Positions 12,433 through 58,013 of a DNA stretch of 64,000 nt are shown piece by piece. Origin of the DNA: Minisyncoccota bacterium (GTDB taxonomy: Bacteria > Patescibacteriota > Minisyncoccia > Phycocordibacterales > Phycocordibacteraceae); the NCBI GenBank assembly GCA_022842945.1, contig JALHOO010000001.1, positions 24,847 to 88,846 on the forward strand. Direction: 5' to 3'. Position numbers and translations under genes: made by a program. Each line of letters begins with the position of its first letter. Position 1 is the stretch's first letter. The notes beneath the pieces were generated by a model. It had not been told where the DNA came from, made no database searches, and was given only the letters and a program-made list of their open reading frames with translations.

Positions 12433-13071
12433 CTACAGAAGAATGCGCATCAGGCGCACGATTCCTGCGAGCGTGAGTGCATCAGCCGAGAGAAGGACCG
12501 ATTCCTTCCATGGCATGAAGTAGAGGTCACTTTCTTTTGCGTGATGAATCAGGTGCGCGCGAGGTCTCCATCGCGTTTCCGAAATTTGCACGAGGTCCTT
12601 AATCGGGCATTCAAGAGCAAATGTCGGCATGCCCTCGCCCTCGTGAGGATTCTGAACGAAGTACATACGATCAGAATTTACCGGAAGTCCTGGAAGCAGG
12701 CGAGCACCTGAAGTGTTGATGCCCCCTTCTTCTTGGCTTTCGCGGCATTGGGCTTCCTCGGGAGATTCATCGACTTCGACAAAACCACCGAGTAAGCACC
12801 ACACCTTTTCCGGCCCCATATTAGGCCGAGATTCGTGTACGAGACCGATGAGTATCTCGCCTGCAGGTGTCCTTGACCAAGTTACGGTCGTGGCGCCACC
12901 TTTTCCAGGTTTAAATGCCCAGCCGTTAAAATTCTCAGGACGCCATCCGAAGACAAAGACCCCATACTCAGAACTTATTTCCAGATGGCGCGGATAGATG
13001 TTTTCGCCATCTGCCCGAATAGTCCATGTAAGTGGTTTTTCTGGTGGAACAGGCGCTATAGCAAATGTCAC
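12433..13071 (-). CDS. NUDIX hydrolase
   Basis: Complete Nudix box GGFVEVDESPEEAQCRESQEEGGI (G-x5-E-x7-REUxEExGU). Confidence 0.7.
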   Translation of the reverse strand: MTFAIAPVPPEKPLTWTIRADGENIYPRHLEISSEYGVFVFGWRPENFNGWAFKPGKGGATTVTWSRTPAGEILIGLVHESRPNMGPEKVWCLLGGFVEVDESPEEAQCRESQEEGGINTSGARLLPGLPVNSDRMYFVQNPHEGEGMPTFALECPIKDLVQISETRWRPRAHLIHHAKESDLYFMPWKESVLLSADALTLAGIVRLMRILL

Positions 13072-13175
13072 GTGTGTAACTCCACTGTGTGAATATGAAC
13101 GTCAATCTTATTGCATTTAATCACATTTAGCTTAATAAGTCAATATGTAGGTACCTATCCCCTAATACCAAGTAT

Positions 13176-13781
13176 ATGAAGAAAAGGAGTATAATACGGG
13201 AAATGAGGAAAACCATCATGATGTGGGATGTGTTGAAATCCCTTAATGAAGAACATCAGTCTGCAGCAAGAAAAGACTTGAGGCTTACTTTTGAGTCCGA
13301 AACTGGTTTCGTTAAAAGAGATCAGCTCATCTATCTTTACGCGATACAACATGAAGGGTTTCTCCTTTGGAGAAAAGCAAGACACCTGTGGTGGCGCTAT
13401 TTCCACAAGCATAGGTTCCAAGGAGTTTGCTTGCATTGCAAGCTAGAAGATCTTGAACTTTCAAACTACAAAGAGGTTGGTAGAAAGCAGCGAGAGCTGA
13501 TGGGAAAGATAGATAGGGTCTTAAAAAAGGCGGAAAACTGTACACCCAAACTTGTTGAGGTTAAGGATTTGCATGACGGCTTCTATGAAGATGGCAAGAA
13601 GAAAATGGAGCGGAACATAAGGCTTACTCAGGCAGGAGAGGACTTCGTCGAGTTTGAAGGTCTTTTAAAGAAATTATGGGACGAAGATTGGAAGGTCATG
13701 ACAGGAATTGTGAGCACAATTATTGCTCTGATAACCAGCTTAACTTTATTGATCATTAAAGTTATCGAATTAGCTTCTTAG
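13176..13781 (+). CDS. Hypothetical tail-anchored membrane protein (passenger of the IS element)
   Basis: Soluble N-terminal region of about 175 aa and a single C-terminal TM helix (IVSTIIALITSLTLLIIKVI). AT-rich codon usage differs from the neighbours. Confidence 0.45.
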   Translation: MKKRSIIREMRKTIMMWDVLKSLNEEHQSAARKDLRLTFESETGFVKRDQLIYLYAIQHEGFLLWRKARHLWWRYFHKHRFQGVCLHCKLEDLELSNYKEVGRKQRELMGKIDRVLKKAENCTPKLVEVKDLHDGFYEDGKKKMERNIRLTQAGEDFVEFEGLLKKLWDEDWKVMTGIVSTIIALITSLTLLIIKVIELAS

Positions 13782-13930
13782 CTTTTGGTTTAATTTGGTT
13801 ATCCACAATATTAAATATGGTCTATGTAGGCCATATTTACCTGATTATCGTTGACGCTGTCGCTGTCGCGTGTATACTACTAGTACATATGGCTTCGGCC
13901 TCGCCCCGCCTCGTGTGGGGCAAAATTCGT

Positions 13931-14344
13931 TTATGGGAAAAGAGTGGTTTTTAAAGAAGCCACGACTTTATTAAAAGTTGGCTCATCCAGTGTTGCCATT
14001 TTCTTTACGAGCCTTCTGGCATCAATTGTTCTGACCTGTGACAGTATTACAGATCCGTCTCCCTCGTCGCCGATTTCACCTAAGTAAACGTGCCACTTAC
14101 TATTCTCCCTTTTCCTCCCAGTCAGGGCGACGCCAAAGAATTGAGATTTGTTAAATCCCCGAATTATTAAGACTGGTCGATCAAAGTTCTCTCCCGTACC
14201 GTCTTGCTCTGTACCAATGTTAACTCCTAGGGCACACCACCAAATCTCACGTTCATTGTAGAAAGGATGGTCTTCTTTAGAGTGCAGACCCTTCTTGGTT
14301 GGATGCCATGCCTCAAAATCCTTAGTATAGGGTTCCTCGTTCAT
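13931..14344 (-). CDS. MazF/PemK(Kid)-family endoribonuclease toxin-like protein with N-terminal extension
   Basis: Aligns with Kid/PemK: EIWWCALGVNIGTEQDG...RPVLIIRGFN...FFGVALTGR...VILSQVRTIDARRL...NKVVASLKTTL, versus the Kid pattern EIWLV.LDPT.G.EQ.G.RPVLIV...FN...V.VT...Q.RTID...N.VL.RL.TIL. Confidence 0.55.
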   Translation of the reverse strand: MNEEPYTKDFEAWHPTKKGLHSKEDHPFYNEREIWWCALGVNIGTEQDGTGENFDRPVLIIRGFNKSQFFGVALTGRKRENSKWHVYLGEIGDEGDGSVILSQVRTIDARRLVKKMATLDEPTFNKVVASLKTTLFP

Positions 14345-14431
14345 TTGCAGATTATTCTACGCCTTTTTGCGCGGTGCGCTATACTTTCTACATGTCCGAA
14401 CGCAACAACTTCTTCGACCTCTTAAAGAAAG

Positions 14432-15253
14432 CTATCGGCTCGCCCGTTCCAACAGGTGGGCAAACACCGGAACCGGAGAGTTCCGAAGGTTATAACGATA
14501 CGCAAACTCGTCCAAGTACGCCTGAAGGTGCTGGGGAGACACGAACGCGTACGTCCCCCGAACAGACTTCTTAAACTGGCCCCAGAAGCCTTCAATGGTG
14601 TTGGTGTGCGTATCGCCCCAGGTGTAGTGATTCTTGCCGTGCTTCACGTTGGTATGGCTGTAGCCGTACGCGCGGTATGAGAGCTTATCGTAGCCACGGT
14701 ACTCATCCGTCATAACGCGGGTACCGCGCTCTACGTTCTCTTTAACCATAGGCAGGATAACTTCTGCACGGCGGTTAGGGGCCTTCTTCACACGTACGCG
14801 TCCCTGACGCTCAACCATACCGATAACCGCGTCCTTGTTCTTGAACTTCATCGAGTTCTTGCCCTGCTTTCCGTAGTACGTCTCGTCTATCTCAACTACG
14901 CCGGACAACGGATCGCCGCCCTGCTCCATGAGGGCGCGAATCTGGTGTCCCATGCGCCACGCGCACTTGTACGTCACGCCAAGCTGACGCTGTAGCTCCT
15001 TGGCCGAAACCCCGTTCTTCGAGGACGCAAAGAGGAATATCGCATGGAACCAGAGCGTGAGGGGTGTAGAGGACTTCTCAAAGATAGTCCCTGCAAGGGG
15101 GTGTATCTGCTTTCCCTGAGGGTTAGCGTATGCCTTGCGCTTACTCATACGGCAAAACTGCTTCGCGTCAGGGTATTTCTGGCGGAATATGTAATCTAGG
15201 CACGCTTCATCTGTAGGAAACTCTTTGTGGAGGTCTTTAATCGTGTACTTCAT
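14432..15253 (-). CDS. IS1595-family (ISXO2-like) DDE transposase
   Basis: Motifs VVEIDETYYG, MTDEYRGY and HTNTIEGFWGQFKKSVRGTYAFVSPQHLQAYLDEFAYRYNLRN, which are the characteristic IS1595 C-terminus. An N-terminal zinc-ribbon-like region is present. Confidence 0.8.
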   Translation of the reverse strand: MKYTIKDLHKEFPTDEACLDYIFRQKYPDAKQFCRMSKRKAYANPQGKQIHPLAGTIFEKSSTPLTLWFHAIFLFASSKNGVSAKELQRQLGVTYKCAWRMGHQIRALMEQGGDPLSGVVEIDETYYGKQGKNSMKFKNKDAVIGMVERQGRVRVKKAPNRRAEVILPMVKENVERGTRVMTDEYRGYDKLSYRAYGYSHTNVKHGKNHYTWGDTHTNTIEGFWGQFKKSVRGTYAFVSPQHLQAYLDEFAYRYNLRNSPVPVFAHLLERASR

Positions 15254-15319
15254 TACCTATATCCTATACCAAGAGCTACTTGGCATCAAGGGATAGGTAC
15301 CAATATGTATTCCTTTTGG

Positions 15320-57940: not shown

Positions 57941-58013
57941 GCCGGGATAGCTCAGTTGGTAGAGCAACTGTTTTGTAAACAGTAGGTCGCCGGTTCAAGC
58001 CCGGCTCCCGGCT
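57941..58013 (+). tRNA. tRNA-Thr (anticodon TGT)
   Basis: Cloverleaf traced by hand: acceptor GCCGGGA/TCCCGGC, D-arm GCTC-AGTTGGTA-GAGC, anticodon arm ACTGT-TTTGTAA-ACAGT (anticodon TGT), variable loop AGGTC, T-arm GCCGG-TTCAAGC-CCGGC, discriminator T. CCA is not encoded. Confidence 0.85.

Follow-up and report, generated by a model that had tools for sequence, protein, structure and literature searches.

A MazF/PemK-fold toxin gene carried by an IS1595 element of a Minisyncoccota bacterium most likely has a convergent antisense small RNA as its antidote

An initial annotation of the 64,000-nucleotide stretch of Minisyncoccota contig JALHOO010000001.1 analyzed here (hereafter the window, whose positions are used throughout) had singled out an orphan gene for a toxin of the MazF/PemK family. 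MazF is the textbook type II toxin neutralized by MazE, and orphan copies are usually dismissed as remnants or annotation gaps. We propose that the missing antidote of this toxin is most likely an unannotated antisense small-RNA gene immediately downstream, conserved, convergent with the toxin gene and lying just past its stop codon, which the initial annotation had overlooked. Our preferred reading, to which we assign a probability of about 0.6, is that the two genes form a toxin–antitoxin module with an RNA antitoxin and a type I-like mechanism. That the antitoxin is an RNA of some kind, whether type I-like or type III-like, we consider highly probable.

In nearly all loci of the toxin family, a conserved non-coding element lies directly past the toxin stop codon. 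Read on the strand antisense to the toxin, its consensus starts with TTGAC(A/T), 16–18 nt, (TG)nTATAnT, 5 nt and (U)ACAAAUG, and continues with GGC-UUCG-GCC, UCG, a variable GC-rich hairpin and CAAA, leading into the toxin stop codon. The coordinates of the window copy are given in Table 1. Its putative promoter, sited about 55–80 nt past the toxin stop codon and pointing back at the toxin, is the only promoter-like site between positions 13100 and 15350, and the last ~40 nt of the predicted RNA are antisense to the final toxin codons and the stop codon. To describe the element we used a covariance model, R1, whose seed comprised ten real and two synthetic chimeric sequences. Within the 64-kb window R1 has a single match, at 13884–13924 on the forward strand (E 1.4e-13). 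Across the related loci (numbered with an L below) it gave one match per toxin gene, with E<1e-3 in about 60 loci and weaker scores in most others, and it also matched beside the closest homologues P0002 and P0005. No significant match unlinked to a toxin was found in 749 kb; the single stray match, in L086, follows a further MazF-like copy, which the caller of open reading frames (ORFs) had overlooked owing to an in-frame TGA. RNA and toxin gene are strictly linked, with one RNA per toxin copy.

The predicted structure is supported by covariation. Among the real matches, 95% of the R1 pair cells are standard pairs, and double changes occur in all eight P2 pairs as well as in the middle P1 pair, amounting to 117 cells compared with 32 ± 4 in shuffled alignments (0 of 500 shuffles reached 117). 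Controls in which the alignment was slid were only 25–56% paired, and the swap of GGC/GCC to GCC/GGC in P1 is visible already in a structure-blind MAFFT alignment. Several features also speak to the strand. On the strand antisense to the toxin there are 30 G-U pairs versus 11 A-C pairs, and the loops on this strand read UUCG in 64 of 81 matches and GNRA in 39. A promoter scoring at least 9/12 occupies the fixed position in 59 of 67 loci, as opposed to 16 of 1340 control positions (1.2%); its -10 box ends exactly 5 nt ahead of the R1 start in 55 loci and carries a TG extension in 42. From the G-U excess, the UUCG and GNRA loops and the fixed promoter we infer that the element is transcribed on the strand antisense to the toxin. 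By strict criteria, a terminator-like hairpin that spans or abuts the toxin stop codon is present at RNA positions ~43–80 in 36 of 68 loci, and it is discernible in several more. The predicted 91-nt RNA of the window folds into P1, P2 and a third hairpin, P3 (z = -2.5).

Alternatively, the conserved element could simply belong to the toxin mRNA, as its 3' untranslated region and terminator, read on the toxin strand and without any antisense RNA. This would account for hairpins that follow directly after the stop codon and for the A and U runs that flank them in some subgroups, as in bidirectional terminators. We nevertheless regard it as very improbable, since a sigma70 promoter is kept at a fixed distance on the opposite strand, the loop identities and the G-U excess point to that same strand, and P1 on the toxin strand is trailed only by AUUUGUA.

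Further candidate functions for the element were rejected. An RNA-encoded small peptide does not fit, as the ATG of the leader is changed to AGG, ACG or TGG in 15 of 67 loci, the frames range from 2 to 65 aa and the covariation in P1 alters residues. Pairing in trans between the CAAA(A/U)U motifs of the RNA and the conserved GAUUUUGAU (Asp-Phe-Asp) codons near the start of the mRNA was dropped because, by inspection, loci with UUC as the Phe codon show no compensating change in the RNA. An integron attC or other recombination site was likewise dismissed upon inspection, which revealed two local hairpins and a consensus promoter and no long imperfect palindrome with core sites, and the locus contains no tandem ToxI-like repeats beyond a 6-nt × 2.5 run. 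None of the 4227 covariance models of Rfam 15, the pemK motif included, matched over the element at the gathering threshold. At E<=10 the window yielded only a chance RAGATH-7 match (E 3), and ten related loci yielded nothing at E<=1. A single tRNA at 57941–58013 is the only gathering-threshold match to Rfam in the 64-kb window.

As for the toxin itself, its assignment to the PemK/MazF family, for which a hidden Markov model search had been named as a test, is well supported. The 137-aa protein matches the PF02452 PemK_toxin profile with E 2.9e-13 and 50.4 bits (curated cut-off 23.1) over residues 32–133, leaving ~31 N-terminal residues outside the domain. PemK_toxin is its only Pfam match, ToxN not being among them, and no NCBIfam model matches it; PHROG 9567, "MazF-like growth inhibitor", covers residues 8–114. 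A phmmer search against solved structures returned Bacillus subtilis EndoA/MazF, B. anthracis MoxT, Staphylococcus aureus MazF and Kid. An AlphaFold2 model built on 115 homologues (mean predicted local distance difference test score 82.5) had MoxT, B. subtilis MazF and S. aureus MazF as its top Foldseek matches, with E 6e-8 and template modeling scores of 0.73–0.80 when normalized to target length. The comparison of catalytic residues with MazF structures, which the initial annotation had recommended, placed R56 and T75 opposite R25 and T48 of B. subtilis MazF; in Bacillus MazF this pair is known from experiments to be catalytic (PMC7354611). Within the family R56 is invariant and T75 is invariant or at least 90% conserved. 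With its catalytic Arg/Thr pair intact, this MazF-fold endoribonuclease looks active, and it is presumably toxic. The interval of 13931–14431 initially given for the feature took in the gene correctly, and its remainder is the 87-bp gap beyond the toxin start.

The N-terminal extension of about 30 residues, also recognized at the outset, is found throughout the family. Its motif KDFDxWNxxKK (within residues 1–31) is among the best-conserved parts of the family: W13 and K17 do not vary, and at least 90% of members have K8 and F10. The extension is a genuine family feature and no annotation artifact. Given that both the extension and the catalytic Arg/Thr equivalents are conserved family-wide, the toxin is neither a fragment nor visibly inactivated, and the earlier suggestion of an inactivated toxin can be set aside. 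The extension might act as an intramolecular antitoxin that plugs the RNA groove, as MazE does with its Trp-containing C-terminus. The protein would then inhibit itself until triggered, and the RNA would have no more than a regulator or terminator function. The conservation of K8, F10, W13 and K17, the acidic-aromatic DFDxW motif, which resembles MazE C-termini, and the short helix modeled in the extension at moderate confidence are compatible with such a role. We give it little probability, as the strict linkage of a separately promoted, structured RNA to every copy would be left unexplained.

We also considered proteins as antitoxins. ORFs were called in 79 related loci and clustered all against all within 2.5 kb of the toxin gene, and no protein cluster recurred. 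The only "ORFs" that did recur in these loci (e.g. MASASP...) arose from translating the conserved RNA element that follows the stop codon. A Pfam scan of 66 small upstream ORFs gave no match to MazE, AbrB or RHH families, and no Pfam family was matched by more than one of them. In the window, the 87-bp gap between the transposase stop and the toxin start, which are on the same strand, holds no plausible ORF and none resembling MazE or PemI. We accordingly rejected a protein antitoxin upstream or downstream of the gene, and the absence of an upstream MazE/PemI/Kis-like ORF, as initially observed, was borne out and extends to the lack of any protein partner in the 79 loci. As in the type II systems MazEF, PemIK and Kis-Kid, the toxin belongs to the dimer-type RNase family and has the same fold and catalytic Arg/Thr. 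The cognate antitoxin gene that those systems carry upstream in the operon is absent at the window locus and the family has no upstream MazE, PemI or Kis; it differs further by its conserved N-extension and by a convergent RNA gene in the antitoxin's stead.

The convergent neighbor at 13176–13781, described at first as a tail-anchored membrane protein, does end in a hydrophobic stretch (Table 1). Its proposed role as the antitoxin did not hold up: it is an ORFan, with only itself found among 5.8 billion proteins, no Pfam, NCBIfam, PADLOC or PHROG match, no counterpart in any of the 79 other family loci and no relation to the cargo of a sister element described below. That this protein is the antitoxin, or the toxin gene a decayed remnant, has in its favor that the two genes are adjacent and convergent within one insertion sequence (IS); given the isolation of the ORFan, the intact toxin ORF and its conserved catalytic residues, we find this barely credible. 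A near-perfect AT-rich palindrome (TAAATATGGTCTA / TAGGCCATATTTA) at 13812–13839, past the ORFan and ahead of the small-RNA promoter, could be a terminator of the ORFan or an operator.

In the mechanism that we propose, modeled on type I systems with overlapping 3' ends and apparently also on CjrA/CjpT of Campylobacter jejuni, the sigma70 promoter would fire back toward the toxin gene and give rise to an RNA of ~85–90 nt, perfectly complementary to the 3' end of the toxin mRNA. Continuous synthesis of this probably labile RNA would allow it to pair with the toxin mRNA and to block toxin production, be it through cleavage of the duplex, destabilization or a block of translation. If the locus or the RNA were lost, toxin would be made and growth would be arrested. 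The scheme presupposes transcription of the RNA, its predicted 3' end, toxicity of the protein and this mode of counteraction, all of which we infer. As type I systems require, a separate small-RNA gene with its own promoter overlaps the toxin gene in antisense, as far as the prediction goes, and RNA and toxin are inherited together. The small hydrophobic toxin peptide that is typical of type I systems, even though not universal among them, is replaced here by a 137-aa soluble RNase fold. SymE, and presumably CjpT, are precedents for type I toxins that are not such peptides. The Firmicutes systems txpA/RatA, bsrG/SR4 and par (fst, RNA I/RNA II) are similar in their convergent transcription and 3'-end overlap and, for part of the present family, in a shared bidirectional terminator, but their toxins are small hydrophobic membrane peptides, whereas those of the present family are soluble RNases of 130–140 aa.

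The genomic context of the family bears on how the toxin could be controlled. Genes upstream on the same strand are unrelated across loci (GyrB, Pol I, RpoB, DnaX, ATP synthase subunits, pilins and others). In about one fifth of the loci the toxin start lies 1–20 nt beyond the stop codon of a large housekeeping gene; housekeeping neighbors such as gyrB, polA, rpoB, dnaX and genes of ATP synthase subunits occur, for example, in L021, L025, L047, L024, L055, L012 and L090. Many other loci have a -10 box just 6–9 nt before the toxin ATG, which suggests that the toxin mRNAs there may be leaderless. At the tails of housekeeping operons or behind such leaderless-looking promoters transcription of the toxin cannot be shut off, and its control would therefore have to be post-transcriptional, in line with the antisense mechanism proposed here. 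Tandem arrays of 2–4 MazF-like paralogues, found at L053:4992–7700 and also in L020, L047, L058, L066 and L086, are informative in a different respect. Each paralogue is accompanied by a convergent promoter and a two-hairpin RNA of its own, and the stem and loop sequences differ from one RNA to the next, which is the pattern expected of cognate toxin/antidote pairs. Divergent paralogues with a KKFLEW-type extension likewise carry a convergent two-hairpin RNA. The second copy in L086 (3889–4272) has its in-frame TGA at a variable position of the KDFxKW motif (KDF*KWH) and has kept its RNA gene; either it became a pseudogene recently or TGA may be recoded in that metagenome-assembled genome (MAG).

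A probable experimental precedent comes from the plasmid pVir. Searching annotated plasmids and phages with tblastn, we found N-extended homologues on replicons of Campylobacterota. The PemK-like protein WP_011117588.1 of pVir from C. jejuni 81-176 can be aligned with the family profile across 125 columns, which take in the N-extension (hhalign 98.9%, E 2.8e-17). Downstream of the homologues from pVir, Nitratiruptor and Helicobacter there is a convergent TTGnnn-17-TATAAT promoter, followed by 2–3 hairpins of which the last abuts the stop codon. In strain 81-176, CjrA has been described as the antisense small-RNA antitoxin of a type I system on pVir (PMC10470494; PMC7826846). No toxin other than the PemK-like one is annotated on the 81-176 pVir, so that CjpT, the proteic toxin under the control of this small RNA, is presumably WP_011117588.1. 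The same slot of pVir holds the orphan PemK-like gene with its convergent RNA in 81-176 (L100, NC_005012, 30630–31034) versus a YafQ-type type II pair in IA3902 (L102, NC_017284, 30375–30924), which by comparison of the two plasmids appears to be an allelic swap of addiction modules. An abstract by Shen et al. from 2016 reportedly assigned virA/virT to IA3902 and cjrA/cjpT to 81-176. Cjpv2, a validated small RNA of pVir, was considered as the convergent RNA of the PemK-like gene and rejected, as it maps elsewhere on the plasmid. The pVir protein resembles the family under study in being an orphan that can be aligned over its full length, with the same N-extension, a convergent promoter with hairpins and carriage on a mobile element. 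It differs in that protein identity is just ~25–33% and in that its RNA cannot be aligned, having no R1 match and forming AT-rich hairpins without a UUCG P1; moreover, the present host is a bacterium of the candidate phyla radiation (CPR) and the vehicle is an IS1595 element.

Several points weigh against a type I-like module. The promoter, start and terminator of the RNA are predictions; in the window the -10 box has no TG extension, and the tail of the terminator is just moderately U-rich. P2 is itself terminator-like in one subgroup, and the overlap with the mRNA may be short. The covariation was counted, from real matches only, on an alignment fitted to R1, with the two synthetic chimeras in its seed. 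R1 does not score the RNAs of Campylobacterota, whose likeness, including that of CjrA, is architectural only, and we take CjpT to be the PemK-like ORF from its position and from what the 2016 abstract reportedly assigned to 81-176. Finally, although the coding overlap does not include the leader, P1 or the linkers, their sequences are strongly conserved in very divergent hosts. A pure cis-antisense RNA would not require this conservation, which hints at a protein or another partner in trans.

The toxin, perhaps via its extension, is the obvious candidate for such a partner, and the main rival explanation, unlikely in our judgment, is that the RNA antitoxin acts on the protein in type III fashion. 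Leader, P1 and P2 would then bind the MazF-like dimer as a pseudo-substrate or inhibitor, perhaps through the N-extension, while the antisense overlap would be incidental or provide extra regulation. Indeed, the non-overlapping 5' domain (ACAAAUG, GGCUUCGGCC, UCG, CAAA) is nearly invariant while the proteins are just 40–60% identical, paralogues with the KKFLEW... extension carry a different P1 loop, AUU(U), and MazF proteins hold single-stranded RNA in the groove of the dimer (4mdx). A direct recognition of leader–P1–P2 by the N-extension, which would define a new class of RNA antitoxins directed against MazF-fold toxins and working on the protein or at both levels, is correspondingly a tentative proposal. 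The type III systems ToxIN, CptIN and TenpIN resemble the module in using a structured RNA against an endoribonuclease toxin, and the fold of ToxN is related to Kid/MazF. They differ from it by their tandem RNA repeats, which the present RNA lacks, by an RNA gene expected upstream and co-directional, whereas here it is downstream and convergent, and by the toxin, which here matches PemK_toxin; in addition, the sole studied relative was reported as a type I antisense system. For these reasons we continue to favor a type I-like antisense mechanism.

The family is widespread. Among 5.8 billion proteins we found 566 homologues, most of them 130–135 aa long and matching 94–100% of the query, and a scan of one genome per species identified at least 583 species-level genomes that carry it, overwhelmingly MAGs of Patescibacteria (CPR). 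The few carriers outside the CPR include the cultured Methylocystis suflitae NLS-7 (L041), and cultured Alpha- and Epsilonproteobacteria are represented. Copies of the module were seen in genomes labeled Alphaproteobacteria, Chitinophagaceae, Bdellovibrionales, Gammaproteobacteria and Bacteroidia (L041, L062, L071, L082 and L088); apart from the isolate L041, these could stem from binning contamination by CPR contigs. The three closest homologues (76%, 73% and 68% identity) occur in three different contexts, without the IS and without the tail-anchored ORF. An entirely different interpretation is that the MazF-fold protein is a dedicated processing or regulatory RNase in a non-addictive cellular role, with the adjacent small RNA as its substrate or cofactor, and that there is no toxin–antitoxin pair at all. 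Many copies sit right at the 3' ends of housekeeping operons, the family is very widespread in the reduced genomes of the CPR, and it is nearly absent from viral contigs and from the PADLOC models: PADLOC defence-system models matched neither the toxin nor the ORFan, and a search of IMG/VR for a phage origin of the toxin gave one weak partial match only. Yet the patchy distribution, the variable context, the tandem paralogue arrays and the copies on plasmids, prophages and an IS are typical of selfish modules, and the pVir precedent is a plasmid-maintenance system, so that we consider such a non-addictive RNase improbable.

In the window, the toxin and RNA genes travel together with the ORFan as passengers of a whole IS1595-family element (Table 1). 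The 12-mer core of its inverted repeats occurs only twice in the window, and AATATGTA flanks each repeat on the outside as an exact 8-bp duplication, the size typical of IS1595 elements in ISfinder. The GC content is ~40–45% over the ORFan and the toxin/RNA cargo (13000–14200) versus ~52% in the flanks and 55% in the transposase gene, which is consistent with a foreign origin of the cargo. A sister IS (L097:3453–5405) encodes a transposase that is 82% identical and has the same terminal repeats 1.95 kb apart, with no clear target duplication visible; its passenger is an unrelated 312-aa ORF without a Pfam match, and its DNA similarity to the window ends 42 bp after the transposase stop. A scan of metagenome contigs for the inverted-repeat pattern revealed no other copies of the IS, and all contigs with an identical transposase represent the same locus. 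One metagenome contig from the same population (L096, corresponding to window positions 13685–15303) has its start just 2 nt beyond the right inverted repeat, as if assembly had broken off where the IS ends, and insertion polymorphism may lie behind this. In its DDE_Tnp_IS1595 transposase, terminal inverted repeats, 8-bp duplication and extra non-transposase genes the element resembles other IS1595 elements, of which the subgroups marked '+' in ISfinder carry passenger genes. What sets it apart are the passengers themselves, a toxin/RNA module and an ORFan here and the 312-aa ORF in the sister IS. The initial idea that the toxin is used by a mobile element is thus right as to its location within the IS1595 repeats; that the module stabilizes the element is a role it may have.

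Table 1. Features of the IS1595 element and of the toxin/small-RNA module in the window
Feature	Position	Strand	Basis or remark
Whole IS1595-family element, 2152 bp, with toxin/RNA module and ORFan as passengers	13150..15301	.	Repeats, GC content, sister IS
Target-site duplication AATATGTA, left copy	13142..13149	.	Read from sequence
Left terminal inverted repeat GGTACCTATCCCCTAATACCAAGTA, 25 nt	13150..13174	+	Repeat scan, inspection
ORFan, 201 aa, with C-terminal hydrophobic stretch of ~20 residues; second IS passenger	13176..13781	+	ORF call, homology searches
Predicted sigma70-type promoter, TTGACG-16 nt-TATACT	13851..13878	+	Promoter scan; conserved position in family
Conserved RNA core	13884..13924	+	Covariance model match, covariation, strand evidence
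Order within RNA core: leader ACAUAUG, P1 (GGC-UUCG-GCC), UCG linker, P2, AAA	P1 13891-13900; P2 13903-13921		
Predicted full small RNA, ~88 nt (about 85-90)	13885..13972	+	Ends predicted
Terminator-like hairpin P3, followed by U-rich tail	13944-13963	+	Inside last ten toxin codons
MazF/PemK-fold toxin gene, 137 aa	13931..14344	-	ORF call, PF02452, fold model, catalytic equivalents R56/T75
IS1595-family DDE transposase, 273 aa	14432..15253	-	PF12762 E 1e-38, NF033547 E 4e-58
Right terminal inverted repeat GGTACCTATCCCTTGATGCCAAGTA (read inward)	15277..15301	-	22/25 identical to left repeat
Target-site duplication AATATGTA, right copy	15302..15309	.	Read from sequence
Sequence expected at an empty (uninterrupted) target site, TCAATATGTATTCC			

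Taken as a type I-like module, the locus combines known kinds, a type I toxin–antitoxin system and a MazF toxin, for which a Campylobacter plasmid offers one probable experimental precedent. The family-wide RNA motif, its breadth in the CPR and its carriage as IS cargo are undescribed as far as Rfam 15 and literature searches show. All members of the subfamily that we examined have no protein partner and possess a structured, convergent small-RNA gene that neither annotation pipelines nor Rfam report. If our reading is correct, a single example from a Campylobacter plasmid would become a broad class of RNA-controlled MazF toxins, many "solo toxins" would find an explanation, and an insertion sequence would be seen to have captured an addiction module as cargo; the RNAs would also be among the first candidate functional small RNAs of CPR bacteria. 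Should the RNA be recognized at the protein level, this class would be spread over hundreds of CPR and other species, hitch-hiking at the 3' ends of essential operons and in insertion sequences.

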